Assembly: GCA_043718025.1 (NCBI GenBank)
Contig: JAYSWN010000165.1
Location: forward strand, 1 to 51,920
Length of the DNA: 51,920 bases
Direction: 5' to 3'
DNA from: Pseudomonadota bacterium
GTDB taxonomy: Bacteria > Bdellovibrionota > FAC87 > UBA2466
A program made the position numbers and the translations under genes. Below the pieces are notes generated by a model. That model saw only the letters and a list, made by a program, of their open reading frames with translations, did not search any database and had not been told where the DNA came from. Of the stretch, positions 11,129 through 40,701 are shown in pieces. Numbering within the stretch: position 1 is the stretch's first letter; each line of letters opens with the position of its first letter.

Positions 11129-11258
11129 CCTTTGATCATAACCCAAGGGGGGCGTTTTTTGCGGTAGTAACGGCGCGTTAACTGAAACGGCATCGTTGCC
11201 AAGCCCTTTTGCCTCGCGCTATCTTAGCGCTTTTACCTTGATTGGGGCTTATTGGCCG

Positions 11259-13513: not shown

Positions 13514-15935
13514 CTCGGTGGTGATCGGAAGTGGATTTGGCGGCTTGGCGGCGGCGATTCGTCTGCAGGCAAATGGGCACCAGGTGACCTTACTTGAAAA
13601 ACGCGACAAGGCCGGTGGCCGGGCCTACGTCTATGAAGACAAAGGGTTTACCTTCGACGCAGGCCCTACGGTGATCACGGCCCCCCATTGTATCGATGAA
13701 CTTTTTGAACTGGCCGGGAAAAAACGCGAAGACTACATCGAGTTTTTGCCGGTGAGCCCCCTCTATCGTTTGTATTGGGAGGACGGCACTGTATTCGATT
13801 ACACCAACGACATGGTTGAAACCATGGCGCAGATTAAGAAGTTGAATCCAAAAGATGCCGAGAACTATCCGCGTTTTTTGGATTACACGCGCAAAGTATT
13901 TGAGAAGGGGTACACCGAGCTTGCCCACGTTCCCTTTCTTAATTTTTCGTCGATGATCCGCTGTGCGCCAGATCTGATGAAGTTGCAGGCGTTTCGTTCG
14001 GTATACGGAATCGTTTCTAAGTACCTTCAGGATCCGCATTTGCGACAGGCTTTTAGTTTTCACTCTCTGTTAGTCGGGGGCAACCCCTACTCTACTTCCG
14101 CCATTTACACGCTTATTCATTTTTTGGAGCGCAAGTGGGGCGTCTTTTTTGCCAAAGGCGGCACGGGAGCGCTGGTTCGGGCGATGGTGAAACTGTTCGA
14201 AGATATCGGTGGAAAGATTCGTTACGAGAGTGAAGTGGCCGAGATCATGGTCGAGTCGCGGGCGGTGCGTGGGGTTCAATTAAAGAGTGGTGAAAAAATT
14301 ATGGCTTCGCGAGTGGTGAGTAATGCCGACGTGGCACACACCTACCGCGACCTTTTACAAAATACGAGTGAAGTCAAAGCGCGTGCGAAGCGGATTGTAA
14401 ATTCTCGCTATAGCATGTCACTCTTTTTGCTCTATTTCGGCAGCAAGAAAGCGTACCCGCAAGTTGCCCATCACAATGTGCTGTTTGGACCTCGCTACAA
14501 AGAGCTGCTCAAAGACATCTTTCAGCGCGGTATTTTGGCCGATGATTTTTCACTCTATCTTCACGCCCCTTGCCGCACTGATCCGTCGATGGCGCCCGAA
14601 GGGGGCGAGGCGTTTTATGTGCTTTCGCCCGTGCCTCATTTAGGCAAAGCCCCAATCGATTGGAAAACCGAAGGGCCAGTCTACGCCGATAAGATTTTAA
14701 AGTATTTGGACGAGCGTTATTTACCGGGCTTGCGTGAAAACATCGTTACCCAGCGTATTTTTACCCCCGATGATTTCACCACCGAGCTAAACGCCCACTT
14801 AGGCTCGGCGTTTTCGCTTGAGCCCCTTTTGCAGCAGAGTGCTTACTTCCGGGTGGCTAATCGTGATCCGGACGTGGCGGGTCTTTACTTTGTCGGAGCC
14901 GGAACTCACCCGGGCGCCGGTATTCCTGGCGTGGTGAACTCCGCCAAAGCTACCGCCGGAATCGTTTTAGAAGACGATCGGCCTACTCCATTGAGTGTGA
15001 CCGCCCCGGTCTATGTTCCTAGCGTTAAATCGGCATTGGCCGAATGTAAGAAGATGATCGAAGTCGGGTCCAAAAGTTTTTCTTTGGCCGCTAAGTTGTT
15101 TGATCCGCAAACGCGTGATGCGGCGTTTTTTCTCTACGGTTGGTGCCGTTATTGTGACGATCAGATCGATCGCGCCCAGAATTTACGAATTCAGGAGGAG
15201 CGAATAAAAGAGCTTCGTCTCGAAACAGAAAAGGCTTTCGATGGCACTCCCTGTAACAATCCGGTCTTCATCGCCTTGAGTCATATCGCGAAAGAGTATC
15301 GCATTCCTCGTCATTACGCGCTCGAGTTGATCGAAGGCATGGCGATGGACGTTCGCCGTGAAGCCTATTGGACCATCGACGATCTTCGGCTGTATTGTTA
15401 CCGCGTGGCGGGAACGGTGGGGTTGATGATGTCGCACGTGATGGGCGTGAGTGATCCCAGGGCGTTAAAGTATGCGGCTGATCTAGGGTCAGCCATGCAG
15501 CTCACCAATATTGCGCGCGATATTCGCGAAGATGCCGAAATGGGCCGCGTCTATCTTCCGCTGTTGTGGTTGGACGAGGGTGGAGTGCTTGAGGGGCAGA
15601 TCATGCAGCCTCGTTATCGCCATGCCGTGAGCCAGGTGGTCAAAAGACTGCTCCGCGAAGCGGATGCGTACTATGATTCGGGCTTGAGTGGCTTAAAGTT
15701 TTTACCGTGGAGGGCCGCCGTGGCGGTGAGTGTGGCTTCTGAAGTTTATTCACAAATCGGGCGGCAAGTTTTGCGGCGCGGTGAAGCAGCGTGGGATAGC
15801 CGTACGTTTGTTTCCAAGTGGGGCAAATTAACTGCCGTGGTGAGAGGAACTCTTCGCGTGTTATTGAGTGCTCCTCAGCGAATGTGGCTCCCCTGGAGGC
15901 GAGTGGAGATTCAACAGATATGGAGGCACGCATGA
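13497..15935 (+). CDS. crtIB: Fused phytoene desaturase (CrtI) - phytoene synthase (CrtB)
   Basis: N-terminal ~490 aa: GSGFGGLA, FDAGPTVIT, SFHSLLVGGNP, GAGTHPGAGIPGV. C-terminal part: GSKSF, WCRYCDDQID, YCYRVAGTVG, MQLTNIARDIRED. One uninterrupted frame. Confidence 0.93.
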   Translation: MENRINSVVIGSGFGGLAAAIRLQANGHQVTLLEKRDKAGGRAYVYEDKGFTFDAGPTVITAPHCIDELFELAGKKREDYIEFLPVSPLYRLYWEDGTVFDYTNDMVETMAQIKKLNPKDAENYPRFLDYTRKVFEKGYTELAHVPFLNFSSMIRCAPDLMKLQAFRSVYGIVSKYLQDPHLRQAFSFHSLLVGGNPYSTSAIYTLIHFLERKWGVFFAKGGTGALVRAMVKLFEDIGGKIRYESEVAEIMVESRAVRGVQLKSGEKIMASRVVSNADVAHTYRDLLQNTSEVKARAKRIVNSRYSMSLFLLYFGSKKAYPQVAHHNVLFGPRYKELLKDIFQRGILADDFSLYLHAPCRTDPSMAPEGGEAFYVLSPVPHLGKAPIDWKTEGPVYADKILKYLDERYLPGLRENIVTQRIFTPDDFTTELNAHLGSAFSLEPLLQQSAYFRVANRDPDVAGLYFVGAGTHPGAGIPGVVNSAKATAGIVLEDDRPTPLSVTAPVYVPSVKSALAECKKMIEVGSKSFSLAAKLFDPQTRDAAFFLYGWCRYCDDQIDRAQNLRIQEERIKELRLETEKAFDGTPCNNPVFIALSHIAKEYRIPRHYALELIEGMAMDVRREAYWTIDDLRLYCYRVAGTVGLMMSHVMGVSDPRALKYAADLGSAMQLTNIARDIREDAEMGRVYLPLLWLDEGGVLEGQIMQPRYRHAVSQVVKRLLREADAYYDSGLSGLKFLPWRAAVAVSVASEVYSQIGRQVLRRGEAAWDSRTFVSKWGKLTAVVRGTLRVLLSAPQRMWLPWRRVEIQQIWRHA

Positions 15936-16522
15936 GCCGAAGCGAAGCGCCACGCAACTTCGCGCAGGATTTTGTGCTCTATGCCTCGCGCATGGCCCAG
16001 TTTGATGCCATGGACTGGCGGGTTTACGTGCTGTGGATCGGCATGATGCTGGGGCTTTTTGGTTCGATTACCGGCTTTCTTGCCGTAGGTGTTTCTAAAG
16101 GCGTGGTTTATCCCGCTTACGTTTGGAATATTCCGGCCGGCACTTTTATCTTTATCATGGCCATTGCGTTCGACACGATTGGTCACCGTACCGTCTATAA
16201 AAAGGCGCTGCAACAGGGTGAAGCGCTGGTGCATCACATTACCATCGCGGCCGGTGTCTCTAGCTGCGTTCTCTTGTGCTTGGCGTACACCTACCCAGTT
16301 GGCTTGAGAGTTCCAGCCGTAGTGATGACTGCGCTCACCGTTTTTTACAGCATGATTGACGAGGGAATGCATTGGTTTCGCTACTTCGCCGGAAATTCTG
16401 ATCGAATCGAAATGTGGAGTCATTTTTTTATTTTCGTGGGACACACGATCATGATGCTGGCATGGCTATGGTGGTTTGAAGCCGGCTATCCGGGCGTTGC
16501 CGCCACTCTCGTGGGTTGGTAG
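15932..16522 (+). CDS. Integral membrane protein with repeated His/acidic motifs, last gene of the crt operon
   Basis: ATGA overlap with crtIB stop and GGAGG SD; about 5 TM segments; DTIGH, EALVHH, DEGMH, EMWSH motifs. Confidence 0.75.
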   Translation: MSRSEAPRNFAQDFVLYASRMAQFDAMDWRVYVLWIGMMLGLFGSITGFLAVGVSKGVVYPAYVWNIPAGTFIFIMAIAFDTIGHRTVYKKALQQGEALVHHITIAAGVSSCVLLCLAYTYPVGLRVPAVVMTALTVFYSMIDEGMHWFRYFAGNSDRIEMWSHFFIFVGHTIMMLAWLWWFEAGYPGVAATLVGW

Positions 16523-27714: not shown

Positions 27715-28647
27715 ATGTCGTTCATTAAAAATCACCTGTTCGTCGTTGCCCTCTTTTTTTATGGCCCGTTAGTTTGGGGGGATGCGCCGGCCAAAGGCAA
27801 AACTCTTTTGCCCCAGGCGCAGGTTTTTAGCTGCGACTTTGATGACAATATTTTTTTCACGGACGCTAAGATTTACCTTTGGGATGCGGCGAATCAGCGG
27901 GAAATACCGGTCACGACGCAGAACTGGGCCTTGGTAAAAAATAAAGTGGGTAAGGCCGGTGAATGGAAAAACATGACCATTCGTCAAGAGTCACTTCGCG
28001 ATTTCCGTGATGACTCAGAGTTGGGCACCGACATCGTAAAAGTCCAGGTAGAAAGGGCATTAGAGAAAAAGGGGGCCAGGGCCTTTGCCCCTTCCTTCAA
28101 CGCGATGAGAGATGCCTTGTCTCATCCCTCCACCCGAAAACGCTTTTTTGTAATCACCGCCCGCGAAAACTCTCCCGCGGCGATATTGAAAGGTTTTGAG
28201 GTGCTTAAAGAGCGGGGCTACCTCAGCGCCTTACCGCTGGTCGAAAACATTTTCCCCGTGTTGTGGAAAGAGTTTCCCCCGGCCTTACGTGGAGACAGCG
28301 TTAGCGAAAGCAAAGCCAACGTCATGTTACGTATATTGGACGAGCTCGAAAAAGAGCCGATGCCGTCCGATGCGTTGGAGGTAGATGGTCGCGATGGCAC
28401 CGTAAAAGAAAAGCTCCACCTCTGGGGGTTTTCGGATGATGACTTTGATAATTTTAGCAAAGCCCGAGAGGTTTTGGCCGCTCAGGTGGCCAAAGGGCGC
28501 TGGCCGCACGTAAAAGTATCGCTGTTCTTTACCGGCTTGAATAATCCGTTGGAGAGTTCACGCGCCGAAGTGATCATGAACAACGGTCTGACCCGACCGG
28601 CCACAAAGAATGAAGGCACGCGCATGGGAAGCAAACCCAAGCCGTAA
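27715..28647 (+). CDS. Exported HAD-superfamily-like protein
   Basis: Signal peptide; DFDDN (motif I), ITAR (II), K (III), GFSDDD..N (IV). Confidence 0.65.
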   Translation: MSFIKNHLFVVALFFYGPLVWGDAPAKGKTLLPQAQVFSCDFDDNIFFTDAKIYLWDAANQREIPVTTQNWALVKNKVGKAGEWKNMTIRQESLRDFRDDSELGTDIVKVQVERALEKKGARAFAPSFNAMRDALSHPSTRKRFFVITARENSPAAILKGFEVLKERGYLSALPLVENIFPVLWKEFPPALRGDSVSESKANVMLRILDELEKEPMPSDALEVDGRDGTVKEKLHLWGFSDDDFDNFSKAREVLAAQVAKGRWPHVKVSLFFTGLNNPLESSRAEVIMNNGLTRPATKNEGTRMGSKPKP

Positions 28648-28706
28648 GCATCGCTGCACGGCGCAACGAGTCAGTGGTATCTGTGTCCGTCGCCGCGTAA
28701 TTTGTT

Positions 28707-29369
28707 ATGATTCACCCGAACATGACGGGTGAGCTCAGCATCGAAAATATCGAAAAGAGTTTTTGTCTGCCCCACCCCTGGGGAGTGCCTTGGCTCGCCA
28801 AAAAGGCCGAGGTCATTCGAGGTTTTTCTCTCCGCCTCAGAGTGGGCGAAATTGCGGCTTTGGTAGGCGCCAATGGCGCGGGAAAAACCACCATTCTTAA
28901 AATTGCGATGGGAATGTACCGGCCAAGCCGCGGCCGGGTGCTGATCGACGGCCAACCGGCCCACGCCGTGCCCCGAAAAAATTTGGGAATGATGATGACC
29001 CATCGCCTCTTGTACCCAGCGCTTACGGGCTACGAGAATCTGGCTTATACCGCTGCGTTGTACGGTTGCCGCGAGATTAAGGCCGAAATCGCCGCTAGTT
29101 CAGAGCAATGGGGCCTGCAAGCTTACTTGCAGCGCCCGATGCAGGAGTATTCGCAAGGCATGCGTACGCGTTTGGCCTTGGCCCGCGCCACGATTACGCG
29201 CCCCCGCTTTCTTTTCTTAGACGAGCCTTTTTCGTTTCTCGATGACGAGATCGGGCTTCCCCACGCCATTAAGGTGATTCGCGCCTTGGGGGTGACCACG
29301 CTTATCACCTCGCCGGTGCGATCGGTGGTTGCTTTCGCCGACAACGTGGTGGAGCTGCAAGCCTTATGA
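28707..29369 (+). CDS. ABC transporter ATP-binding protein
   Basis: GANGAGKTT Walker A, YSQGM signature, FLFLDEPF Walker B; H-loop appears degenerate (LITSP). Confidence 0.9.
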   Translation: MIHPNMTGELSIENIEKSFCLPHPWGVPWLAKKAEVIRGFSLRLRVGEIAALVGANGAGKTTILKIAMGMYRPSRGRVLIDGQPAHAVPRKNLGMMMTHRLLYPALTGYENLAYTAALYGCREIKAEIAASSEQWGLQAYLQRPMQEYSQGMRTRLALARATITRPRFLFLDEPFSFLDDEIGLPHAIKVIRALGVTTLITSPVRSVVAFADNVVELQAL

Positions 29370-30148
29370 ATGCACTCGCGGTCTTTTTTAAAAAAGAGTT
29401 GGCGCTGGAGAGTCGGTATGCGGTGCCGCTGCTGCAAAGCTTATTCATAAGTCCTATGGTAACCGCCCTGCCACTCTTTTTTGTTTACCGTAGCGTCTTT
29501 GTAAATTCGCAACATCAAGTGGCGGGGTGGAATGGTTCAAATTATTTGGCGCAGATCGGAGTTGGCCTGATTTGCCATTTTTGTTTGAACAGCGGTAGTT
29601 ACGTTCTCTTCAATCGCATTCTCGCCGAATGGCATCACCACACATTTGCCCTATTGTGGTTCTCCCCTCTACCCCGTTTGGCAAATTTACTGAGCCTTTC
29701 GCTTCCCGATATTTTTCGTTCCGCTTTTTTTGCGGGCGGGGTTACCGCTTTATTATTTTGGCGACAGACCAGCCCTGCGGGATTGCTCGGGGCAAGTTTT
29801 CTGTTCTTGCTTTTTTTTCTCTTTGGGGCGGCATTGGGAATATTAAGGTTTTTTCAGCACCTGCTTTTTCCGGCGGCACTCGACTTCGTCAATTTTTTTT
29901 ACCTGGGACTTCTGTTCACCTCGGGACTCTACTTTCCGGTTGGGGTGCTGCCGGCGCCCTTTAATTCTCTGGCGGCGTCTAATCCGCTTTTTCACGGCAA
30001 AGTGGCCATTCTCGCTTTGCTGCACGGCAATTCGGCCCTGGCATCGGGCATTTTATTTTTGGCGCCGCTAACTTTTATTTGGTGCGTGGTGTGCCTGGTC
30101 AGTACATTCTATGGCGCCCGGATAAACGAAGCATGCCTAAAGAACTAA
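29366..30148 (+). CDS. ABC-2 type transporter permease
   Basis: About 6 TM segments; SGLYFPV..LP and NPLFH motifs; ATGA overlap with the ATPase. Confidence 0.85.
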   Translation: MNALAVFFKKELALESRYAVPLLQSLFISPMVTALPLFFVYRSVFVNSQHQVAGWNGSNYLAQIGVGLICHFCLNSGSYVLFNRILAEWHHHTFALLWFSPLPRLANLLSLSLPDIFRSAFFAGGVTALLFWRQTSPAGLLGASFLFLLFFLFGAALGILRFFQHLLFPAALDFVNFFYLGLLFTSGLYFPVGVLPAPFNSLAASNPLFHGKVAILALLHGNSALASGILFLAPLTFIWCVVCLVSTFYGARINEACLKN

Positions 30149-30642
30149 CTCCTCTAAAATTTGAAGTCGGAAGCCACAGTATGTGGCCCCTATTGCGGCA
30201 GCATGATCACATTTTGATTCGTCCCCTAATCGATAAAAAAATCAGGCCGGGGCAGGTGGCCGCCTTCGCCGTGAATCACCGCCTCGTCTGCCACCGCGTT
30301 TTAAAGATCGTAGAATATCCAGGCTATCCGGCCAGGTATTTTACCCGGGGTGATTTAGCGATCTCTACCGATCCGAGTCTAAGCGGTGACGAGATCTGGG
30401 GAAGGGTGGTGGGCGTGCAGGGGGCTCCTTTTCGTTCGCTTTGGCTCGGGCCATTGGCGCCCGTGTTTTTGTTTTGGGTCTACGCGCGCGATCAGGTTTT
30501 AGAACGGGTGGGCGTCCACTCTAGGTCGGGGCTCTATCGCGTAATCTATTTGGCATTTTTCCCCTGGGCTGTCTTTCGTCCCGGAGGAAAATTTCGTTCT
30601 GGACCTATTGCTCCGTTAATGAGGATTAAGGCGGAGATTTGA
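30133..30642 (+). CDS. S24/S26 family (signal-peptidase-like) peptidase
   Basis: SHSMWPLL catalytic Ser motif, LVCHRV general base His, TRGD, IWGRV. Confidence 0.75.
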   Translation: MPKELTPLKFEVGSHSMWPLLRQHDHILIRPLIDKKIRPGQVAAFAVNHRLVCHRVLKIVEYPGYPARYFTRGDLAISTDPSLSGDEIWGRVVGVQGAPFRSLWLGPLAPVFLFWVYARDQVLERVGVHSRSGLYRVIYLAFFPWAVFRPGGKFRSGPIAPLMRIKAEI

Positions 30643-31946
30643 AACAGGCGATCACTCCGATTGTGCCGTCTTGGATTCGCGATCCACTGGCGCGCTGGGG
30701 TAGCCGGCCTTGGCTTTGTGCTTGCGGACGCCTGTGGTACAACCGTTCGGCCGCACACGTTGCTCGCAAAATCAGTGATCTGGTAAACCCCACCGAAATT
30801 TATCTCAAAGGTAGCGCGGCTTGGAATGATGTCACGCCGGGTCTTTCTGACTTCGACTTGGCCGTGATCGCGGCGGAGGTATCGGAAACTGAGATGGTAA
30901 GCCAGATGGTTTCGGTACGACGCTATTTGGCGTCGGTGCCTCGTCCCTGGATTCCTCTGGGTGAGGTCTCGTGGATCTTAGAAGGGGAACAAAATCTCTT
31001 TCAGCGAGTGTCACTAAGGCTACCGGCGCGGCACTATTATCTGAAGAAATTTTCAGCGGATCGCCGCGGCTCTTGGGGGGGAGGGGGATGGGGCAAGCAC
31101 GCCACCGCGCAGGGCTTATACGAAAGCGCACTCGAAAAGTACTTGGACGGCTATCATCAACTTCAGTTTGCGGTACAGGGAGTCTGCTCGACTGAACTTG
31201 CTCATCTGCAGGCCGCTAAATTCTGGAAGCGGTGTCTCTCGTTTTTACAGGCCAGCGAGTCGGAACAATTCCCAAAAGAGATCTCCACCGTGGCGGGGCC
31301 GGTGAGTTGGCCGTTATTGGGCGAGATGGCGGCGCAGTGTCTGGCTAAGCTTGAAGCTGCGACGCCACTCATCGGTGAAATTTACCCCAGCCCCGAGATG
31401 ACTGAAACCAATCTGGTGCGGGCCTACGCCGGTCAGCTGGGGCAACTCCTTGAACGAGAATTGGGGGTGAAGGGTTGGTTGCGGATTGAGCCATCGGCGC
31501 CTTACTATTTTGAAGTGCGATCGACTGACGCTGGCCTTCTGGCTAAAACAATGAGGTTGAATTTCGAAGACGCCAAGCAAGTGGCGGTTAAGCTGCAGTT
31601 TCCTTTGCTGACGCCCCGAGTCGCCGCTTACTACCGAGCGAAGGTGTTACCGAGGGTGATTAATTATTCGGCACTATTTAGAAACCAACAATCAATCGCT
31701 CCGATGCCGGTTGAAGAGTGGCAGCCATTTATCGCCGACGTGTTATTTCGGTCCACAGAGACGTTGATGTACCGGCGTCCAGAACAACTTTTGAACTGGT
31801 CGCGTGCCTTTCATCGTTTGAAACAAGAAACGGAAACTTTGTTGGTGGGCGTCGAGTCTAAGCCTCTACTGGCGGCGATCGACAGGCGCGCCCAACTTTT
31901 TTCAAGGTGCGCCGAACGTCTGAAAGATGACCAGCTGCGTTGTTGA
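30639..31946 (+). CDS. Pol-beta superfamily nucleotidyltransferase-domain protein
   Basis: IYLKGSAA...PGLSDFDLAVI (hGS..DxD). Confidence 0.65.
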   Translation: MKQAITPIVPSWIRDPLARWGSRPWLCACGRLWYNRSAAHVARKISDLVNPTEIYLKGSAAWNDVTPGLSDFDLAVIAAEVSETEMVSQMVSVRRYLASVPRPWIPLGEVSWILEGEQNLFQRVSLRLPARHYYLKKFSADRRGSWGGGGWGKHATAQGLYESALEKYLDGYHQLQFAVQGVCSTELAHLQAAKFWKRCLSFLQASESEQFPKEISTVAGPVSWPLLGEMAAQCLAKLEAATPLIGEIYPSPEMTETNLVRAYAGQLGQLLERELGVKGWLRIEPSAPYYFEVRSTDAGLLAKTMRLNFEDAKQVAVKLQFPLLTPRVAAYYRAKVLPRVINYSALFRNQQSIAPMPVEEWQPFIADVLFRSTETLMYRRPEQLLNWSRAFHRLKQETETLLVGVESKPLLAAIDRRAQLFSRCAERLKDDQLRC

Positions 31947-31970
31947 CGTTGCATCCGAATATTCGATAAT
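31943..31970 (+). promoter_or_regulatory. Putative internal sigma70-type promoter
   Basis: TTGACG-N16-GATAAT ending 7 nt before ATG 31978. Confidence 0.45.
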
Positions 31971-31977
31971 TGCCAGC

Positions 31978-32379
31978 ATGCTAAGGCCTAATCTAGTTCT
32001 TCACCCCCGAGTAGTTGCTTCACCCCACGCGGCAGGTTTTTGTGTGCTGCAATTGGTAGGCGCCCTTCAGTTTCAATTTGCGCTGGAGCAGCAAGCTTGG
32101 TTCGAAGCCATGAAATCGGCAAAGGACTGGGATCAGGTGGCAGCTTCGCTTCCTGGTGAAACCAAGGCAAAAACCGCCTTCCTGCTCTTTCTACTTGAAA
32201 AACAGGTTCTACTCGAAACCACCAACGCTGGGACAGGAGATCTTCCCGGTTGGGGGGGGGCGGCTTTGCCGGACTTAGGTAGTTTGGGTCAAACCTTTTC
32301 CACTGCGAAGCCGCAGGAGTGGCAGTTGGGCTTTGCCTTTGCTGATACCATCGCGAGCTCATTGCTTCCGGCGTGTTAA
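31978..32379 (+). CDS. PqqD/RRE-like domain with C-terminal leader/core-like extension (putative fused precursor)
   Basis: First ~80 aa follow the PqqD three-strand/three-helix pattern (LHPRVV..GFCVLQL..QFQF..W....DQVAASL..FLLFLLEKQVL); tail contains PDLGSLG; alternative start 31927. Confidence 0.55.
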   Translation: MLRPNLVLHPRVVASPHAAGFCVLQLVGALQFQFALEQQAWFEAMKSAKDWDQVAASLPGETKAKTAFLLFLLEKQVLLETTNAGTGDLPGWGGAALPDLGSLGQTFSTAKPQEWQLGFAFADTIASSLLPAC

Positions 32380-33557
32380 CCGACCTGCTTTCTAAAATTA
32401 AAGTGGCGATCGACGCCGCCAATCTTGGGGCGGTCGAATTCAGTCGCCGCGCCGACGCGATTGCGCTGGCTCTTGAACAAGTTTCAATTCCGACTGACCT
32501 AAGTTTTAAAGAAATAAACTTAGGGCTACTCACCCATTTTCCATCCGCCGATAGCAGCAGCCCCCTCGCGGCTCATCGAAGATTTCTGGCGATTGAACGG
32601 CCCCTGTATGATGTTGAGTTGATAACGTGGCTCGGTTTCGATACTGCGGTTCACAACCATCCGTTTGACGGTGTGCTTCACGTTTTGACCGGGGAGAGCC
32701 TCAATCTCAATTACTCCTTTTGCCAAAGTGGCGAAGACGGTGACTTAAAGTGGGGGGATCTAAACGTTACCTCGGTCACTCAGGTTGGCCCCCACCGCCG
32801 ATTTGTTTTTCGCAGCCATTCTGATTTCATCCATAAAGTGATCCACTTAAATCACGAGTGCTGCTCACTTCGCATCATGGCGCGTTCTCCCACCCTGCGT
32901 GAAGGGCAGTGGAGTTACCCGGTTCAAGAACTGGCCTTGCCGGTCGTGGCGCGGAGGCAACAAGGATTTTTCATGCGGGTTCCCCTGCTTGACTACTGGT
33001 ACGCTAACGACCGATCTGCATTTCGCCTAGCGATTGAAAAATGGTTTGCCGCCGGCCACCGTGCCGAGGCGATAAGCTACCTCGCCTTTCTGCGGGCGAA
33101 ATTTGATGATGTCGTAGAAACTGAAAATGCAATTGTTGAATCGCGTCACCTCTCGACAGAAGCAAAGACCAAGATTCTCGAAAATTTCTCCGGACTTGCC
33201 GTTAGCATGCTTCCTCCTTATGCAAAGCGATTAGGTCGGGAGACGGAACTGTTTTTGGCTTTAGTAGCGACATTTGGTTTCGGTCGCAAAATGGCCGGCG
33301 CGATTGCCCCGACCCTCAATCGGGAAGCGCCGTTGGCCTGGGTTACGCAAAGGCTAATGGAAATTACCTTGAGCGTCCGTCCAGAACGGGCGCTAGCCTT
33401 GTCTCTGCTCAACCGCCTTAACGAGTGGGAGCGGGGAGGGCATGGTACGATGGCGACACCCACTTCATTTATCTCCGAAGCCTGGCGGGTTGACCAATTC
33501 GAAACGTTTTTATCCGATTTGAAATCGGCCAACCTGCTTATTGGGGGTGGGCAATAG
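32373..33557 (+). CDS. Cupin (cysteine-dioxygenase-like) domain protein with helical C-terminal region
   Basis: TAVHNHPFDGVLHVLTG and FIHKVIH give an HxH...H metal triad. Confidence 0.6.
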   Translation: MLTDLLSKIKVAIDAANLGAVEFSRRADAIALALEQVSIPTDLSFKEINLGLLTHFPSADSSSPLAAHRRFLAIERPLYDVELITWLGFDTAVHNHPFDGVLHVLTGESLNLNYSFCQSGEDGDLKWGDLNVTSVTQVGPHRRFVFRSHSDFIHKVIHLNHECCSLRIMARSPTLREGQWSYPVQELALPVVARRQQGFFMRVPLLDYWYANDRSAFRLAIEKWFAAGHRAEAISYLAFLRAKFDDVVETENAIVESRHLSTEAKTKILENFSGLAVSMLPPYAKRLGRETELFLALVATFGFGRKMAGAIAPTLNREAPLAWVTQRLMEITLSVRPERALALSLLNRLNEWERGGHGTMATPTSFISEAWRVDQFETFLSDLKSANLLIGGGQ

Positions 33558-34996
33558 TGCGCTGGCTGTTTGCCTTTCCGCCGCTTTTCTTATTAGCGAG
33601 AGTCTTTTTTCGGAACACCGCTTCCGAGGGAGAGTCTCCTCGTTCCTACCGATCGCAAGGTAATTCGCTAGCCCCCTGGTTGTTTGTCGCACTGGCCTTC
33701 ACCCTAATCGTGATGCTGTTTCAGCCGATGAATTTCGATGAGCACGGACAGCTTGTGCGCGCCCTTGGTTTCGACCCGAACCCGCCCTCAAATCATTGGC
33801 TGGCGCGAGTCTTTTCTCGATTCGGAGTGCAGGCCGTCGGCCGTCTTTGGGTGGGCGCTCGGTTACCCTCAATTCTGTTTTCTTTTTTTACTATTGCGTT
33901 GTGGTATTTCGTTTCTTCGCTGTACTTAAGTCGCATCGCCGCCACTTGGTTTTCGGCCGCGCTGTTTGCCAATGGCCTTTTTCTGTTCAATGCGGTCTCA
34001 TCCCGCGCCTATTCCCTAGGCATGTTTTTAACCACGGCGTTAGTAACGACATTGGTGAGCTATACCGAAACCAAACAAATTCGCTGGGCTACGCTTTCAC
34101 TGGCTTCTCTCGCTCTGCTGCTAGGCCTGGGTGGTGTGACCCACCGCATGCTGTATTTGGTTTCTATTGTTATTTTCATCGCCCTACTTTTTTGGAGTTG
34201 GCAAAGAGTTGAAAGCCGTATGATGCCGCGACTGGCGGGGCTGGGCGCGGCGCTATTTATCTGGTTAGCCTGGCCCTATTTGTGGGGCGTATTTGATACC
34301 GAGCGGGAAAGCGGATTGTTTTTTCGGACGCTTACGTCGGCAGATTTGGTCTGGAATCGGCTCGAATCGATCTCCTTCCTCTATGTTTTTGGTTGGGACC
34401 GATCTTGGCAAGCGTTGCTTGGGTTTGCTTTTGTCACCACGCTTTTAGCCATTCGCCTTCGTTCATCAGTGGTGCTCTTTGGGGAATACTATTGGGTTTT
34501 GCTTCTTCTCGCGCTTCCCGCCATCGGCTGGGGGGTGGGGAATCTGGCGTGGGAACCCCGTTTTTTTATTTTTTTTCTACTTCCGGGTGTTTTCTTTCTG
34601 GCGCAATCGCTAGATGCCATTCAAACGAGGCTAAAAAAGTTTTGGTGGTCGGTGGCCTTTCTGCTTTTTGTCTTTCTGCCTCTCTTCCAGGCTCCTCGCC
34701 TGTTTATGAATTCCGGCGGTCAAATGGACTTAGTGAAATTTTTGGATGTGGCGGCGAAGCGTTATTCCCGCCATCAGGATTCTTGTCTATCGTGTTCAGG
34801 TAGCCATTCGTATTGCCGGTGGGTTAAAAACATCTACCTGCCCCCGGAACGGGGTTTTGCCTGGTCAAGCCAGTGCGCTCATCCCTGGGTGGTGCGCATT
34901 ACGGGCAATGACCAAAACCCCATGCCGCCGGGGCGCTGGTTGGTCAACTTTGGTTATGGAAGGGACTATTTGTTGTATGAGCCATTGGCGCCCTGA
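33557..34996 (+). CDS. GT-C fold membrane glycosyltransferase (GT39/ArnT-like)
   Basis: About 11 TM segments; NFDE, NPPSNH, ARLPS, RAYSL, EPRF motifs. Confidence 0.65.
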   Translation: MRWLFAFPPLFLLARVFFRNTASEGESPRSYRSQGNSLAPWLFVALAFTLIVMLFQPMNFDEHGQLVRALGFDPNPPSNHWLARVFSRFGVQAVGRLWVGARLPSILFSFFTIALWYFVSSLYLSRIAATWFSAALFANGLFLFNAVSSRAYSLGMFLTTALVTTLVSYTETKQIRWATLSLASLALLLGLGGVTHRMLYLVSIVIFIALLFWSWQRVESRMMPRLAGLGAALFIWLAWPYLWGVFDTERESGLFFRTLTSADLVWNRLESISFLYVFGWDRSWQALLGFAFVTTLLAIRLRSSVVLFGEYYWVLLLLALPAIGWGVGNLAWEPRFFIFFLLPGVFFLAQSLDAIQTRLKKFWWSVAFLLFVFLPLFQAPRLFMNSGGQMDLVKFLDVAAKRYSRHQDSCLSCSGSHSYCRWVKNIYLPPERGFAWSSQCAHPWVVRITGNDQNPMPPGRWLVNFGYGRDYLLYEPLAP

Positions 34997-35036
34997 ACTT
35001 GGCAAAAGCATTTTGCGTCCCAATGAGTCGGATGCG

Positions 35037-36011
35037 ATGCCCGGCCATTCTGCTTTTCAGACGCCGTTCCACGGCAATGTGGGGGGAATTGGATTTGAAG
35101 TGGCATCCGAAATTCCAGAAATCAATCGGTGGTTGGCTCGTGACTACTTGCCTGTGCCCAGCATTGCGCCGACCCCGCTTCGAGTAAAAGTGCTTAATTC
35201 CCCTCCCGCTAAGATTCGTTCGTGGTTTCACTCACCGCGATCGACGTGGAAATTTTGGGGCGAAGTAAACGAAGCCATTTTTTTCGGACGCGTGTCCGTA
35301 CACTATCATTCGGTCGGGCGCTTGGCCTACGTGGCCGGGCAGCACGCGGCGGAAGTGTATGAAGTGGTGGAAATGCTGCTGGCGTCCTTTTTGGGAGAAC
35401 AGGCCGATGCTAAAGGTTGGCACCGCGTTCATGGCTTAGGGGTCAGCTTTCGTGGTGAGGCCACGCTTTTCGTTGGTACGGCGGGCGCCGGAAAGACCAC
35501 CCTGGGGGCCGATCTCTTCTACCACCCCGACGCCAATTATTTTTCAGACGACATTCCGTGGGTAGCGCGAGAGGCAACTCTGCATCCGTATCCGCATCGC
35601 TTTAGCTTTAAAGAGTTTCCGCAATTTCCCCACGCGCAAGTTAGGCCACACTTTCGCCCTCGCTACGGCCAGCGTTTCTACGTCGATGCCGATGTGTTTG
35701 CTGAGCGCTGGTCGGCGCCTCAGCCGTTAAAACGAATTTTTTTATTGAAGCGCGGTGAGGTGAGGGGCTGTTTCTTGCAGAGTCGATGGCGGGTGTTTGG
35801 CTGGCTGCTCCGTTGGTTAGTATTGGGGCTCGAAACTCCGCAGATTTTTGAGTTGCGACTAAGGCTTGGGCCGCTGAGCTTCGGGCGCGCAATTCAGGCT
35901 TTTGTCTCTCGGCTTATTACCGCAATTCGCTTGGCACTCTGGGTGGACGGGTATTGCCTCACCTATCTTTCGGGCGATCGCCCGTCGAAAATTCTCGAAG
36001 ACTATAAATAG
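35037..36011 (+). CDS. HPr kinase/phosphorylase-like P-loop kinase
   Basis: VHGLGV..ATLFVGTAGAGKTTL...FSDDIPWV (His + Walker A + SDD signature of HprK-related kinases). Confidence 0.7.
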   Translation: MPGHSAFQTPFHGNVGGIGFEVASEIPEINRWLARDYLPVPSIAPTPLRVKVLNSPPAKIRSWFHSPRSTWKFWGEVNEAIFFGRVSVHYHSVGRLAYVAGQHAAEVYEVVEMLLASFLGEQADAKGWHRVHGLGVSFRGEATLFVGTAGAGKTTLGADLFYHPDANYFSDDIPWVAREATLHPYPHRFSFKEFPQFPHAQVRPHFRPRYGQRFYVDADVFAERWSAPQPLKRIFLLKRGEVRGCFLQSRWRVFGWLLRWLVLGLETPQIFELRLRLGPLSFGRAIQAFVSRLITAIRLALWVDGYCLTYLSGDRPSKILEDYK

Positions 36012-37123
36012 AAATGCGTCATCAAGTAAAAAAAGTCGCCGTAGCTGTCACTCAGGGCGCGAATTTGCTGCTTTTGAAAACTCAAGTTTAGCTCCAGGTG
36101 GGGCCGTAGAAAAAGTTGGGTGCCAATGCCAAACGCTTGATTTTCGCTAGATGTTTTGGTCCAGTCTAATTTGCCGTATTCGTGAGTCAGGTAAAGGTGG
36201 ATGCCCTTGTAAAACTCGTGATCCAGTTTGAGGTAGCTCGTGAGTCCGGCGCCGATCGGTCCCGTAGCGGGAGTGAGATGCTGAAAGTCTACTTCTGCCA
36301 ATAAGAACCAATGGGGCGTGAATCCGAGAATGGCGTAGGGACCGGCGACGTGCCGGTTGCCCAAGGGGCTTGATCCATAGAAATAGCTCGCGCCCACCTT
36401 GTAGCGGTCGTTTAAAAAACGGCTACCTCTAATTGAAACGCCGCGGTCGCGGTTTAGTTTTTCATTATCCGGACGACCCAAGCTGGCCGTTAAAAAGAGA
36501 TCGTAGTTTTCTCCTAAGTAAGCCGCCTCTAAATTATAACTCTCGCTACCATCATCCCACCTCAGGCCCCGTTTGATGCTCACAAAATGGTCGGCTAAGT
36601 TGATGCCGTAAGGCAGCTGAAACCGCCCCAGCCGAAACGAAAAGTTGTCGGTAGGCCGGTAGTTTACGTAGTGGCGCCGGCTAAGAATGGTGCTGCCGGT
36701 ATTATTGGCGCTCACTTCGGATTGCCGACCTAGGCTTACGGCTACTGTCCATTTTTCAATTTGCGCGGCCGCTTCGGCATCGATTTGCATCAATACCGTC
36801 TGGGCTCGCTCCACCACGCGATTTCCTTCGATTCGATTAGAAAAGGCTTGTAGTCCACGAACGTCACCGCCCAAGTTTAGCCACTCTGGCGTTGTGACTA
36901 AGTAGGCAAAACGCTCTTCCCCTTCGGCCCCCCAGGTACTCAAGACTTCGCGCGAAAGGCTGCGGCCGTAGGCGGTAAGTACCCCGCCTCCATCGGGAGA
37001 AAGGTGACAGGTCATGCAGTTGGCGTATCCATGTCTGACCATTTCGGGAAAGGCCTGACTCTGGTTGCTAACCACAGTGGCCAAAAGGAGAGCGATCGTT
37101 AAAACTAAACGGTTTGAGTACAC
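36002..37123 (-). CDS. Outer-membrane beta-barrel protein with N-terminal CxxCH heme motif
   Basis: Signal peptide ending SQA; FPEMVRHGYANCMTCHLSPDGGG.LT.YGR; barrel strands; terminal HFYL. Confidence 0.75.
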   Translation of the reverse strand: MYSNRLVLTIALLLATVVSNQSQAFPEMVRHGYANCMTCHLSPDGGGVLTAYGRSLSREVLSTWGAEGEERFAYLVTTPEWLNLGGDVRGLQAFSNRIEGNRVVERAQTVLMQIDAEAAAQIEKWTVAVSLGRQSEVSANNTGSTILSRRHYVNYRPTDNFSFRLGRFQLPYGINLADHFVSIKRGLRWDDGSESYNLEAAYLGENYDLFLTASLGRPDNEKLNRDRGVSIRGSRFLNDRYKVGASYFYGSSPLGNRHVAGPYAILGFTPHWFLLAEVDFQHLTPATGPIGAGLTSYLKLDHEFYKGIHLYLTHEYGKLDWTKTSSENQAFGIGTQLFLRPHLELNLSFQKQQIRALSDSYGDFFYLMTHFYL

Positions 37124-37133
37124 GGGTGTCCTG

Positions 37134-37712
37134 CTATTTCAGTTGGCCGGAAACGGTCGAAGTTACCTTCACCGCTTCGGTTACTTTTATGCCGAGATAA
37201 CTCGGGGTTTCGATGCCAAAATCTGCCGTGGGAATTTCGAATTGAAAAGTCATATCGACCTTATCCGCTTTTTTAGTCACCTTGGCCGTGCCCTTGATCA
37301 TTTTTTCTTTGCCGTGAAACGCCAAGTTTCCCGAAAAAGGGACCGCATCAGCCGAAAGCTCTTTGTCGGCCGAGGGCAATTTCATTTCGGTAATGTTTAG
37401 TGCGGCCTTGGGAAATTTGCCGACTTCTAAATATTTCTCTTTCATGTGTTTGTCGCGCAGATCGATACCCGTTTCGAAGGCATCAAGTTGGAATTCCGTT
37501 TTTCCCGAAACCGAGGCGCCCTCAAAAACCAACTTCCCGGTAAGGGGCTGTTTGATCTTTTCAGTTTTCATCTCGCCGCGGATTTTTATGGCGCTTGGTT
37601 TGCCGATCGCCAAGAACTCAACCCGGTTTTTGGGATCGTTCAACTCCAAGGTAGCGGCTCGGGCCGGCAAACTGAGGAACAAGGCGACAAGTAAAAAAGT
37701 ACAAAACTTCAT
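37134..37712 (-). CDS. yceI: YceI family periplasmic protein
   Basis: FETGIDLRDKHM, KFPKA, G.LAFHG, DFGI..P motifs. Confidence 0.88.
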   Translation of the reverse strand: MKFCTFLLVALFLSLPARAATLELNDPKNRVEFLAIGKPSAIKIRGEMKTEKIKQPLTGKLVFEGASVSGKTEFQLDAFETGIDLRDKHMKEKYLEVGKFPKAALNITEMKLPSADKELSADAVPFSGNLAFHGKEKMIKGTAKVTKKADKVDMTFQFEIPTADFGIETPSYLGIKVTEAVKVTSTVSGQLK

Positions 37713-37731
37713 GTTGTAGATCTCCTGATGG

Positions 37732-38448
37732 TTAGTTGTTTAAAGCGCCGTCTAAAATCCATTTTTCAATGGTATCGCGCTCGGCCTCGGGAACTTCGGG
37801 CCGGGGCGGTGGAGGCATTCTATCTTTCTCTTCAAAGGCCGTCAGTTTTTGTAGAAATGAAGAATCAATCGGTTCGTTTTTGACCACTACCCCGGGAGTT
37901 TGGAATAGTGATTCGTAGGTACGAAGGTCTAGTTTTCCGGCCTTTTGGCCACGGTGGCAGCCGATGCAGCGTAAATCGATAATCAGCTGTTTGATAGAAG
38001 AGTAGGTCGGTTTTAGAACGGGCGGCGGTGGCACAATCACTGGCGTCGTTGGCTTTTCGGTCGGCAGGGCCGTGGCGCTGGCCCCGGCGTCAATCCAAGC
38101 GCTGAGTAAAGCCAACTCTTTTTCGGTTAATCTGGGGGCGAACTTCGGCATGTTGCCTAGTTTTACGCATTGGTAAAGGACACTGGCCTCGGCATCTCCG
38201 GCAACCACCTTCTTTGAGTTCATTAGAGCTGAGTAGTCAGTGAGATCTACGCCACCGAGTGCTTTTTGGGGACTGTGGCAACCGATACATTTAGGTTCCA
38301 GAATAGTCTTTTGCACTACGGCAAACCACGTCTTCGGCGGCTCGGGCTCGGCAGACCCATTCAATGTTCTTTCGACGCGGTAATTGCATGAAGCTAAGCA
38401 AAACAAAGAAAGGAGCAGAAAAAAGGGTCTGTTTTGGGTTCGGTTCAC
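37732..38448 (-). CDS. Diheme c-type cytochrome lipoprotein (Planctomycete cytochrome c-like domains)
   Basis: Lipobox LASC; two CIGCH motifs each followed by DL...MP...WI.GA pattern. Confidence 0.8.
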   Translation of the reverse strand: MNRTQNRPFFLLLSLFCLASCNYRVERTLNGSAEPEPPKTWFAVVQKTILEPKCIGCHSPQKALGGVDLTDYSALMNSKKVVAGDAEASVLYQCVKLGNMPKFAPRLTEKELALLSAWIDAGASATALPTEKPTTPVIVPPPPVLKPTYSSIKQLIIDLRCIGCHRGQKAGKLDLRTYESLFQTPGVVVKNEPIDSSFLQKLTAFEEKDRMPPPPRPEVPEAERDTIEKWILDGALNN

Positions 38449-38593
38449 GATTCGATCCCCCCATAAATAGCGTCGCGACGCTCTGTGGCACTTAACACGG
38501 CCAAGCGGACGATATCCAGCGAGAAACGCTAGAACGCGCCGACTGGCCGTGAAATAAATTGGGCGACGATTTTAAGTTAAGGGCCTTTGCCGA

Positions 38594-39088
38594 TTAGGGC
38601 TTGGGCGGACGAAACATTGAGTGAGCTTCGCCTATGGTCGATTCTAGGCGCTTCAGAGTCGCTTTAGAGGCCGTAAACTCACGCGTGCTGACGTCGGCCT
38701 TGTTTAGTTCAGTGAAGTACTGAACTTCGAGATCGGCTAGGCGGGCTTGAGCGGCGCCCATAATGGCGACATACTGTTCAGTAAGTTTCTTTCGTTCTGC
38801 CGGATCGGTGGTCTCTTCGATCTTCCCCGGAAGCAATTCGCCTTCGCTTTTGTCGATCGCTTGTTGCATTAGCGAAGAGATCATTCGGGCGCGGATGATG
38901 GCGGTCAGCAAGAGGGCGTCGGTCGCTTCTCCCGCCGGCTTTTTGGTAGGATCCACTACCATGGCGAGATCCCGACCGATGGCCTTCATCGTGTAAGACA
39001 ACATGACGTTACTTTTGATCGCTGCAGAGGCCGTGGGCGTTGCCGCCAACACAGACACAAGAACGAGCGCGGATAATATTAGTTTCAT
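38594..39088 (-). CDS. Periplasmic four-helix protein, cytochrome b562-like
   Basis: Signal peptide (ASA), early Met (TMKAI) and C-terminal GEAHSMFR His; AGGAG SD. Confidence 0.5.
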   Translation of the reverse strand: MKLILSALVLVSVLAATPTASAAIKSNVMLSYTMKAIGRDLAMVVDPTKKPAGEATDALLLTAIIRARMISSLMQQAIDKSEGELLPGKIEETTDPAERKKLTEQYVAIMGAAQARLADLEVQYFTELNKADVSTREFTASKATLKRLESTIGEAHSMFRPPKP

Positions 39089-39254
39089 GAGCGGCTCCTG
39101 ATTGTGGATGTGGGAAACGAGCTGCGGCGACGAACCTCGTACCCCAAGTTTTACTTAATTTACAAATATCACCGTGCGTAGCGGTTGGTGAGTAAAGGCG
39201 AAAGCTAGCGGTAACGTTGGTTAAGAGCGTACGAATATTGGCTGGTTCGGCCTT

Positions 39255-39295
39255 AAAAAACCCAGCCCCCGACCACCTTTGGCGATCGGGGGCTG
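39255..39295 (-). terminator. Rho-independent terminator of the C1 protease gene
   Basis: CAGCCCCCGA...TCGGGGGCTG stem followed on the minus strand by GG and a T6 run. Confidence 0.75.
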
Positions 39296-39330
39296 TGCGG
39301 CCTTCGCGGTAGTAAAGTGGAAAAATGGCT

Positions 39331-40701
39331 CTACAGTTCAGTCTGCCCGAACGGCGTCATTACCAGTTTTTTTCCGCCCTGTTCGCGCGTACTGCCCCAT
39401 AAATAGACCAGCGTCTGGCTTGAGCTACTTCCGCAATCGTTTTTGGCGGTAAGGTGGTATTCGGTGCTGATGTCGGGGCGGGCGTAAGTGACGCAGGCAC
39501 TGGCGTCGGTGAGCCCTTCGGTTGGCAACCAGCTGCATTTGGTTCCCGCGGCTTGCTCGACGCCAATTTTCACCGGATCGCCGGCAACCGCTTCATGCAA
39601 GTGAATTTGTTCGGCATTGGGGGCGACACAGGGCGGTTTGTATTGCACGATTTTTGCTGCGACTCCAAGCCCGCGGTTTAGTCGGCCGTTGCCGCATTCC
39701 CACTGCAAACGCGAAACGCCATTCAAACCGTGGCCTTTGCCCCACGAATTCCAGACGTGCGCAATGCGTTTTCCTTCCGCGGTGTCCCAGCCAACCACGG
39801 TCACCATGTGATTGCCGCCCGAATTGATGGCGCTGCACGAATTCACGATGCCATTTCCGCTCACTGAATAAGCGGACACCGTCACCACGAGCGGTGATTT
39901 CCATTGGTAGATGGCGTCCATCATTGCTTTTACTTTAGTGCCTTCGCGAAAACTGCCGTCGGCCGTACGCAACGATCTGGAGAAGGTGAGGGAGCTGCCA
40001 ACGTACGGTGTGTTGGGCACTTTTGCATCCCAACCGGTTTCGATTTGGCCACTGTTGAATTTGCACGACTTGTTGCTGGCCGCGTAGGGAAATTCACTTT
40101 CTAGCGGTAGGCCATGGCGCAAAAAATCTACCGCGCTCATATAGCCACCGCTGCAGCTTCCCTGACGGGAGCACGACAATACCGTCTGAATGGAATGGTC
40201 GAAAACCTTTTGGTCGTGTACGGCACGTGCCAATTCTAAGCCGTGATGAGTGGCCCACGCCCAACAGTCGCCGCATTTTTGCGTGCGCAGGTCGGGCATT
40301 CCGTTTTTCATCAGATCGCGAATATCAAAATTGTCGGGAATGTCTTGGGGCGGACTTTCAAAAAACGTAGTTTGGGGCGCGTACGCCCATTCCGAGTCTT
40401 CGAGCAACCCGGTCTTTTCGGTTTCGTTTTTAAAAAACAGATCGTCTAGTCTGACTTGGTAGCTGCACCGATTGTCTAAAGCGCGTCCCTTGGCGCCAAC
40501 GGCGCCTTCGACGATGCCGGGGCCGCAGGCTTTGACCAACTCTTGCAGCTCGCGTTTGGCCTGACGGTGCTTTTTTGCGTTCAGGTCAAACTTGGCGGGC
40601 ACTCGGGCGGTAACTTCGGGCGGCAACTTCTCGGTGTCGCGGCTGGCGGCCACCACGATAAGAATCACAAAGGTGAAAAATATTCCGGCTAGAATTTTCA
40701 T
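39331..40701 (-). CDS. Secreted papain-like (C1) cysteine protease with C-terminal Ig-like module
   Basis: QKCGDCWAW catalytic Cys, SCSGG, NHMV His, WNSWG Asn. Confidence 0.9.
   Translation of the reverse strand: MKILAGIFFTFVILIVVAASRDTEKLPPEVTARVPAKFDLNAKKHRQAKRELQELVKACGPGIVEGAVGAKGRALDNRCSYQVRLDDLFFKNETEKTGLLEDSEWAYAPQTTFFESPPQDIPDNFDIRDLMKNGMPDLRTQKCGDCWAWATHHGLELARAVHDQKVFDHSIQTVLSCSRQGSCSGGYMSAVDFLRHGLPLESEFPYAASNKSCKFNSGQIETGWDAKVPNTPYVGSSLTFSRSLRTADGSFREGTKVKAMMDAIYQWKSPLVVTVSAYSVSGNGIVNSCSAINSGGNHMVTVVGWDTAEGKRIAHVWNSWGKGHGLNGVSRLQWECGNGRLNRGLGVAAKIVQYKPPCVAPNAEQIHLHEAVAGDPVKIGVEQAAGTKCSWLPTEGLTDASACVTYARPDISTEYHLTAKNDCGSSSSQTLVYLWGSTREQGGKKLVMTPFGQTEL

Follow-up and report, generated by a model that had tools for sequence, protein, structure and literature searches.

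Linear polyphosphorylated peptide (LPP) clusters, with the gene order lppA-K-B-S-D-N, have been described in Bacillota (Popov et al., Nat Commun 2026, PMC13381572). As far as the accessible text of that paper goes, their hallmarks are an SpI peptidase, a discrete RRE (a recognition element of RiPPs, peptides that ribosomes make and that are modified after translation), an HprK-like kinase, an NTP transferase, an MsbA-like exporter and capsule-gene surroundings. The leader motif is given as YxxPxVLxHQxIxFETxxS; polyphosphorylation of Ser3 and RRE-dependent cleavage after T-1 were established by deletion and mass spectrometry and partly reconstituted, deletion of lppN had no effect, and the final product was not found. 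Among the rows listed for Bdellovibrionota in the supplement there are one peptidase and discrete RREs, and no LPP precursor. Paeninodin and pseudomycoidin are phosphorylated or phosphoglycosylated lasso peptides, and in pseudomycoidin a kinase and a nucleotidyltransferase yield the phosphoglycosylation (accessible text of PMC8498205 and PMC11912497). Here we analyse an operon of eight genes at positions 28707-36011 of a stretch of 51,920 nucleotides, hereafter the window, which is contig JAYSWN010000165.1 of assembly GCA_043718025.1, from a Pseudomonadota bacterium placed by GTDB in Bdellovibrionota (FAC87; UBA2466). An earlier note, made from the letters of the window, had read this operon as a putative undescribed RiPP-like system in which the tail of a small RRE protein is modified, cut and exported.

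The enzyme set of the operon is already known from LPP clusters, published in 2026, and hence the system is not undescribed; what differs is a precursor that forms one chain with its RRE, short cores, an ABC-2 exporter and an added cupin. Other parts of the earlier reading fared better, in that peptidase, nucleotidyltransferase, kinase and exporter are supported as a peptide-modification set that works without a cyclase, the same core set being found in LPP clusters. A Pfam scan of the 40 open reading frames (ORFs) of the window found no lasso cyclase, radical SAM, YcaO or lanthionine enzyme, as had been claimed. We consider it about an even chance that the locus is an LPP-like operon for peptide phosphorylation and glycosylation with a one-chain precursor. 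Its product is likely to be a short, linear, phosphorylated and sugar-decorated peptide, to judge from the analogous systems, and probably a cell-envelope glycopeptide rather than an antibiotic.

Identification of the small protein as an RRE depends, like that of the cupin, on structure models, since neither has any match in the curated libraries. In an AF2 model built from an 18-row alignment, residues 1-84 (pLDDT 76-86) form four strands and three helices, and the modelled secondary structure contains the three-stranded sheet followed by three helices, in a winged helix-turn-helix, that defines the RRE/PqqD fold; the tail is modelled with low confidence (pLDDT under 55). Foldseek ranks three RREs highest, TbiB1, TigE and PbtF (E from 6e-3 to 9e-3, with no match under 1e-3); TbiB1 is also the best sequence match among solved structures (6e-5), and RRE-bearing RiPP enzymes make up most of the top 14 in a VIA search (Z 8.6, root-mean-square deviation 2.2 over 73 residues; Z 8.5, 2.6 over 82). 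An Atlas comparison agrees (0.86-0.90), as a lead only. There is no Pfam PqqD match, and a single-sequence database search with the small protein retrieved only the protein itself. When the small protein was left out of a 97-member family profile, the profile still recovered it (residues 4-84, E 2.3e-4) from the 14,897 ORFs of its own genome, where a copy on contig C41 alone ranks higher and the next ORF scores 0.25.

That profile describes a family in which RRE, YxxP leader and short core are fused. Of 38 genomes of the class, 12 have the fusion according to a profile of four such proteins, and 86 members, the query rows among them, reach E<=1e-10 in a library of 50% representatives. Another 363 genomes of the phylum gave nine weak matches with partial profile coverage, and the six inspected were discrete RREs. 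Among 97 family rows, which include near-duplicates, 90 have the anchor proline, and the consensus reads Y-x-R-P-x-[FLY]-L-R-x-G-E-K-x-L-D-[EQD], then [IVL]-[TAS]-F-L-[CY]-P. Tyr(-16) occurs in 56 of the 90, F/L/Y(-11) in 85, L/I/V(-10) in 83, L(-3) in 72 and D/E(-2) in 64. Cores are of 5-6 residues in 51/90, mostly [IVL][TAS]FL[CY]P; 48/97 proteins terminate in [CYSE]P, and S, T, Y or C lies within 86/90 cores. In a tree of RRE domains (46 rows; midpoint root, long branches, bootstrap not settled), 30 family rows split from the other 16, which are mostly discrete RREs (97/96).

That the fused tail corresponds to a precursor is best supported by two unfused sister clusters of the same class (G002 and G011), in which a discrete PqqD (3e-9 and 7e-14) accompanies a separate YxxP peptide, a GT2 and an S26 fusion protein. 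Their precursors end in four to five hydrophobic residues and a terminal Ser or Thr (...KLDCFFMS in G002; ...IQGFYLT in G011). Together with the fusion family, these clusters support the reading of the small protein as both RRE and precursor. The genome of the window itself (G000) contains a second locus (G000:C41:53279-57713, equivalent to L040:13280-17714) with S26 peptidase, PMT-type GT-C, GT2, nucleotidyltransferase and a canonical fusion, a 132-residue RRE with a YxxP leader-like tail and the core VTFAFLYP. Further membrane, YfhO-like and sulfatase-like genes lie upstream of it, and the contig stops 229 nucleotides beyond the locus.

Other arrangements of these parts were also seen. L146:9280-9810 (G027:C71) encodes a second type of RRE-leader fusion, with the tail following YASPSF, near a PF14907 nucleotidyltransferase, an HprK-like kinase, a GT2 and an S26 peptidase; it groups with discrete RREs in the tree and so is possibly an independent fusion. 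A third cluster in the genome of the window, G000:C173:25313-28281 (L168), combines an S26-like peptidase, a separate Cys-containing YxxP precursor, a different HprK-like kinase, a discrete PqqD and radical SAM/SPASM, and precursors resembling this one adjoin kinase and peptidase in G006 and G016 (L144, L145) and in G380 (L151).

In the window copy the leader is divergent. Counting from P112 as in LppA places T124 at -1 and S127 at +3, a match to the LppA register that we count in favour of the LPP-like reading. Our best guess is therefore a cut at T124/I125, which would free IASSLLPAC, with a cut after A-F-A122 as the alternative. Two orphan relatives, P0141 (1e-19) and P0120 (2e-9), cluster with the window protein (98/84). 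P0141 shares eight of nine residues of WQxGFAFAD, has WxxPxF at P98 and retains both the Ser, at the same ungapped position, and the terminal Cys; P0120 likewise retains Ser and Cys. Identity between the window protein and P0141 (37% overall) is higher in the tail (11/21) than in the RRE domain (28/84), and the retention of the tail motif in both relatives argues that the window leader is not simply decayed. The start I-A-S is common to the window core and those of four main-family members. A scan of genome contigs found no locus for the P0001/P0141 subfamily, and a six-frame scan for the family leader in the window's own genome gave the C41 fusion (38 bits) and no separate precursor, the next hit (16.6) lying within a long ORF. 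A frameshift concealing a canonical leader in the tail was rejected, the other frames being closed or unlike it. P98 scores about -22 or lower on the main-family matrix as a leader anchor and was a candidate solely through the WxxPxF of P0141.

Table 1. Features of the operon and of the unfused sister clusters. Positions refer to the window unless a locus is named.
Feature	Position	Strand	Evidence or remark
ABC ATPase, DrrA/BcrA-like exporter type, 220 residues	28707..29369	+	PF00005 6e-30; best NCBIfam match DrrA 4.5e-30, below cut-off
ABC-2 permease, 260 residues, about 5-6 helices	29366..30148	+	PF01061 3.5e-5
Archaeal/SEC11-type S26 peptidase, no N-terminal membrane anchor	30133..30642	+	TIGR02228 1.3e-7 (below cut-off)
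Pol-beta/MNT-type nucleotidyltransferase, 435 residues	30639..31946	+	PF01909 7e-4
Predicted RRE (PqqD-type winged helix), residues 1-84 of 133-residue precursor	31978..32229	+	AF2 model, Foldseek, VIA, family profile
Linker and divergent leader (P98-D-L-G; K-P112; W115-Q-L-G-F-A-F-A-D123-T124)	32230..32349	+	predicted cut between A122 and I125
Predicted core IASSLLPAC (DTIASSLLPAC if the cut follows A-F-A122)	32350..32379	+	Ser(+3) in LPP register, C-terminal Cys; cut site inferred
3-His cupin, thiol-dioxygenase fold and helical C-terminal region, 394 residues	32373..33557	+	H94, H96, H154, H158 invariant in 22 rows
Multi-pass membrane protein, 479 residues, probable GT-C-fold glycosyltransferase (weak)	33557..34996	+	DE behind helix 1 in 11/11 rows
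HprK/PEPCK-like P-loop kinase (LppK counterpart)	35037..36011	+	H132, G152-K153, S170-D171-D172 invariant in 15 rows
Unfused sister clusters	L135:5727-9208 (G002:C3); L142:3926-7090 (G011:C91)		G002: GT2 with C-terminal PqqD-like match, S26::nucleotidyltransferase fusion

An open-frame scan found the eight genes intact and on one strand, as the earlier note had described them, with overlaps at five of the seven junctions after start correction (-4, -16, -4, -7 and -1 nucleotides) and gaps of 31 and 40 nucleotides at the other two (Table 1). Homologue alignments moved two starts, that of the peptidase probably to ATG 30133 rather than 30079 and that of the kinase to ATG 35037 rather than 34746. 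The expected catalytic motifs were located throughout: Walker A, signature and Walker B in the ATPase, S16-H54-D80 in the S26 peptidase, GS..D71xD73..E109 in the nucleotidyltransferase, H94/H96/H154 in the cupin, a GT-C-type D61-E62 behind the first helix of the membrane protein, and H129/H132, GxxGxGKT and S-D-D in the kinase. Strong support from family libraries is confined to the ATPase; the tabulated matches of permease, peptidase and nucleotidyltransferase, and that of the kinase to TIGR04352 (0.05), lie below the curated cut-offs. GC content of the operon is in line with that of the remaining window. Scans for promoters (4 against 5.3 in shuffles) and terminators (25 against 15.9 +/- 3.8, in T-rich membrane genes) stayed near shuffle level. 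One assembled contig of a public run (X1), which may be the source of the window, spans 28000-35744 with zero differences; the public runs in which the stretch occurs are metagenomes from sediment, belonging to a single study, and the source names on three homologues are Bdellovibrionales, Bdellovibrionota and Deltaproteobacteria.

The S26 protein is the predicted leader peptidase and counterpart of LppS: its family profile matches SEC11A at 9e-12, H54 and D80 are invariant and S16 almost so in a 10-row alignment, and the spacing of S16/H54/D80 agrees with that of S29/H68/D93 in LppS. S70, D71 and D73 of the nucleotidyltransferase are invariant across 10 rows, its profile has no meaningful match among solved structures, and PF14907 is not matched at E 10. 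A homologue of the kinase matches TIGR04352 at 1.4e-7, and the kinase profile matches HPrK structures at 0.07-0.1. The ATPase is closely matched (6e-71) in the RRE locus of the same-genus genome G001; among permease homologues weak KpsM matches are the most frequent from NCBIfam (3/6), with DrrB/DrrC in 1-2/6.

Foldseek relates the cupin model to CDO/ADO/PCO and mercaptosuccinate dioxygenase, down to 3e-7, and alignment and model together show the 3-His cupin fold of thiol dioxygenases. The cupin has no Pfam family, a single-sequence database search with it retrieved only itself, a scan of genome contigs gave no locus, and a scan of metagenomes turned up two short contigs that show few neighbouring genes. 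Of 300 other genomes in the phylum 28 have a homologue, but none was found in 37 other genomes of the class; absence from these and from all 13 other family loci marks it as an accessory gene, not conserved with the cluster. It belongs to a widespread, unnamed family of 3-His proteins of 270-410 residues, mostly lone genes, comprising 27 Atlas clusters up to 0.96 (window 32373-33557, L083-L102). At L087:3959-8492 (G278) a homologue stands with an RRE-like small gene, a 62-residue YxxP-leader ORF with two Cys, GT4 genes and an oxygenase-like gene; L098 (G236) has two cupins, YcaO, radical SAMs, a CAAX protease and an RRE-like small gene, and L089 (G053) a cupin homologue and an RRE-like small gene. 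These three RRE calls were made by eye, on small genes without a Pfam match. The assignment of the membrane protein to GT-C is the weakest of the gene calls: at least six helices are predicted at a strict threshold, matches to PMT_2 (4e-4 and 3e-3, in 2/10 homologues) and to a TMEM260-like family (0.06) all fall below cut-off, and comparison with the GT-C genes of other RRE loci gave no clear match (hhalign 5%).

Conservation covers a core of the eight genes and not the full set. At most 7 kb from the fusion gene in 13 other family loci, counted with profiles partly built from the same loci and on contigs some of which end nearby, we found S26 in 11, nucleotidyltransferase in 10 (in six loci within 300 nucleotides of the centre of the RRE gene), GT2 or GT4 in 12, often several, methyltransferase in 6, ABC-2 permease and GT-C-like genes in 5 each, HprK-like kinase in 3 and cupin in 0. 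The co-occurrence that the earlier note had proposed as a check holds for peptidase and nucleotidyltransferase and fails for the cupin and, at the level of loci, for the kinase. Across genomes, close S26 homologues (E<1e-30) occur in 11/12 with the fusion against 0/26 others, nine genomes having supplied profile rows, and the kinase in 11/12 against 4/26, or 15/38 in all; the genomes are kin, not independent, so no P value is given. The window's own genome has two precursors and two peptidases of the family, one permease of this type and one kinase, the sole member of its subfamily found there, and the single kinase and permease may therefore serve both precursor loci. Its best match to the kinase-adjacent GT2 is on C209. 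In same-genus G002 the flanking genes are retained around permease-kinase-GT2 at the syntenic site, and the RRE locus of G001 has a PhyH/Rieske oxygenase at the cupin position, followed by the ABC pair. One methyltransferase of the family loci (L023:4069-4911) is related to the daptide type (NF041820, 2e-25, below cut-off), and methyltransferase is fused to S26 in L054, L057 and L058. In a related locus, L029 (G037:C18), nucleotidyltransferase and permease are each split in two pieces.

Under the LPP-like reading, the predicted RRE of the small protein would grip the C-terminal leader of its own chain, while a serine of the core, S127 (or S128), would be the target of the HprK-like kinase, and the S26 peptidase would release the core by an RRE-dependent cut, both steps being modelled on the LPP experiments. 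On the precedent of pseudomycoidin, the nucleotidyltransferase and GT2 enzymes encoded elsewhere (C41, C209) may put a sugar on the phosphate, and the ABC-2 pump would export the modified peptide. Among the least certain steps are oxidation of the terminal Cys to a sulfinate by the cupin, a guess from its fold and position, and the part of the GT-C protein, which might add a lipid-linked sugar or hand the product to an envelope acceptor.

Several observations weigh against this reading. The main-family matrix (96 members) gives the window leader -7.3 bits, whereas no member falls under -1.2; this is chance level, reached by 812 of the 20,000 shuffles and by 789 of the 6,115 ORF tails, and Tyr(-16) is absent; the register is consequently a guess, whose backing is the two orphan relatives, and their contigs, under 1 kb, provide no gene context to support it. 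Ser(+3) is present in just 5/90 family cores and 22/90 contain neither Ser nor Thr, so that the kinase cannot act on the core throughout the family. In 9 of 14 other loci (three loci being cut by contig ends) the kinase lies directly beside a GT2; it is near the RRE gene in the three loci counted above, and occurs without a detectable fusion in four genomes, and the window operon has no GT2 or GT4 of its own. Among 20 fetched cupin-homologue loci 17 have no conserved neighbours, the other three being near RRE-like small genes. The overlap between profiles and counted loci, the relatedness of the genomes and the contigs that stop near the gene also tell on this side.

A rival reading is that two separable modules have been joined by rearrangement, the RRE fusion, S26 and nucleotidyltransferase handling a peptide while the kinase, from an envelope-glycan module of kinase, GT2 and GT-C, phosphorylates a sugar or lipid carrier, with cupin and GT-C as passengers. 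We regard this as somewhat unlikely. It accommodates the kinase's preference for GT2 over RRE loci, the GT-C-like gene found within 4 kb of it in 7/14, the lack of any of the five middle genes at the syntenic site of G002, the kinase of G009, G012 and G030, where no fusion was found, the rarity of Ser3 and the failure to find the cupin elsewhere in the class. Against it stands the concentration of the kinase in fusion genomes (11/12 against 4/26), and in G002, one of those four, the precursor of the unfused cluster has a terminal Ser. In LPP and paeninodin, serines of the precursor are phosphorylated by HprK-like kinases (accessible text of PMC13381572, PMC8498205 and PMC11912497), and the window core contains two serines. 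The earlier note's own alternative, a surface glycoconjugate cassette, gains from the glycosyltransferases of 12/13 loci and from the kinase beside GT2; as an either/or with the peptide reading it does not stand.

A different view makes the tail a primer or carrier, whose hydrophobic core with a nucleophile near the C-terminus is the glycan acceptor for nucleotidyltransferase and GT2/GT4, and which S26 frees and ABC-2 exports like a capsule or O-antigen unit. The short cores, the [CYSE]P ends, the nucleophile in nearly all cores, the abundant GT2/GT4, the KpsM matches and the capsule loci of LPP clusters with their missing product (accessible text of PMC13381572) are all in keeping with this. 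We nonetheless hold it decidedly unlikely: the KpsM matches are far below cut-off and DrrB/DrrC equally good, the ATPase resembles DrrA rather than Wzt, genes for a polymerase or for chain length were not seen in the window, and the operon has no soluble glycosyltransferase. Its bolder form, a self-presenting surface-glycan primer in which the RRE carries leader and a 5-9-residue hydrophobic tail and kinase, nucleotidyltransferase and glycosyltransferases build a phospho-linked glycan on a residue beside the C-terminus before S26 frees and ABC-2 exports it, we rate as unlikely. If true, it would make the cupin a new tailoring enzyme that oxidises peptide Cys, and would explain both the capsule-locus setting of LPP and paeninodin clusters and the missing LPP end product. 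A further reading, in which the tail is a pseudo-leader (decayed or autoinhibitory) and the RRE presents some other peptide or protein, appears very unlikely: the chance-level score, the missing tyrosine and the low-confidence tail suit it, and the canonical C41 copy could be the working precursor, yet the tail motif persists at 37% overall identity, all eight frames are intact, the six-frame scan gave no separate family-leader precursor besides the C41 fusion, and the unfused sister precursors have equally short ends.

Around the operon, a 310-residue protein at window 27715-28647 (+), 59 nucleotides upstream on the same strand, has zero family matches and by eye an N-terminal DxD resembling HAD phosphatases. 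The kinase gene overlaps its convergent neighbour by 10 nucleotides; window 36002-40701 (-) encodes a papain-family protease, a 164-residue unknown, a dihaem cytochrome c, a YceI protein and a beta-barrel-like protein, in an order preserved in G002 and in part in G001. Pfam identifies carotenoid genes at window 11196-16522 (lycopene cyclase, polyprenyl synthase and an 812-residue phytoene desaturase::phytoene synthase fusion).

PMC13381572 leaves as questions what LPPs finally yield and do, and likewise the kinase/nucleotidyltransferase pair of capsule loci. A one-chain precursor whose core has 5-9 residues makes an unusually simple substrate for such work, in that a single tagged protein reports each modification by intact mass, and it may avoid the insolubility of LppB seen when that protein is expressed alone. 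The 86 representatives offer natural variants with different tailoring genes (methyltransferase, 2-oxoglutarate oxygenase, radical SAM, cupin), and the locus offers a testable substrate for a widespread, unnamed cupin family.

Among described enzymes, the thiol dioxygenases (CDO, ADO, PCO and mercaptosuccinate dioxygenase; accessible text of PMC10989515) share the cupin barrel and HxH...H triad, whereas the window cupin has 11-20% identity to them, 394 residues, a helical extension and no Pfam family. The TIGRFAM groups HPr-rel-A (TIGR04352/04353) and SynChlorMet (TIGR04248/04249) also place an HprK-related kinase beside PqqD-like proteins and are matched by kinase homologues at 1e-7 and 1e-4; these matches are far below cut-off, and the window locus has no radical SAM. 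The accessible part of the daptide preprint (10.1101/2023.03.08.531785) contains nothing on precursor fusions, and a literature search, whose coverage left out most subscription journals, found no paper on an RRE fused to its own precursor. Paeninodin and pseudomycoidin clusters, in the accessible text, resemble the locus in their HPr-kinase homologue and nucleotidyltransferase, PqqD-type RRE and YxxPxL-type leader; they differ in that none of the 40 window ORFs is a macrolactam synthetase or B2 cysteine protease (two full-length PF00733 matches in the genome are on other contigs), the core is too short for a lasso and the precursor is fused to the RRE.

The closest comparison, within the accessible text of PMC13381572, is with LPP clusters. 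The window family differs in having RRE and precursor in one chain, where LPP has a discrete RRE and a separate precursor; in cores mostly of 5-6 hydrophobic residues, against 45 in LppA, with Ser3 a rarity; in an exporter of separate 220-residue ATPase and ABC-2 permease rather than one MsbA-like protein; in a nucleotidyltransferase that matches PF01909 and not PF14907, the type that the name of LppN suggests; and in the added cupin and GT-C and a different phylum. Against the LPP leader motif, the window copy has P(-13), D(-2), T(-1) and S(+3) and lacks Y, V, L, H, Q and F. Common to both are an archaeal-type SpI/S26 peptidase with Ser-His-Asp, an RRE, an HprK-like kinase, a nucleotidyltransferase, an ABC exporter, the lack of a cyclase and glycosyltransferase-rich surroundings, and the main-family leader is of YxxP type with hydrophobic residues at -11/-10/-3 in LPP register. 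Hence the window departs from LPP membership in three features, the discrete RRE, the full leader motif and the exporter type, and agrees with it in peptidase, RRE and kinase.

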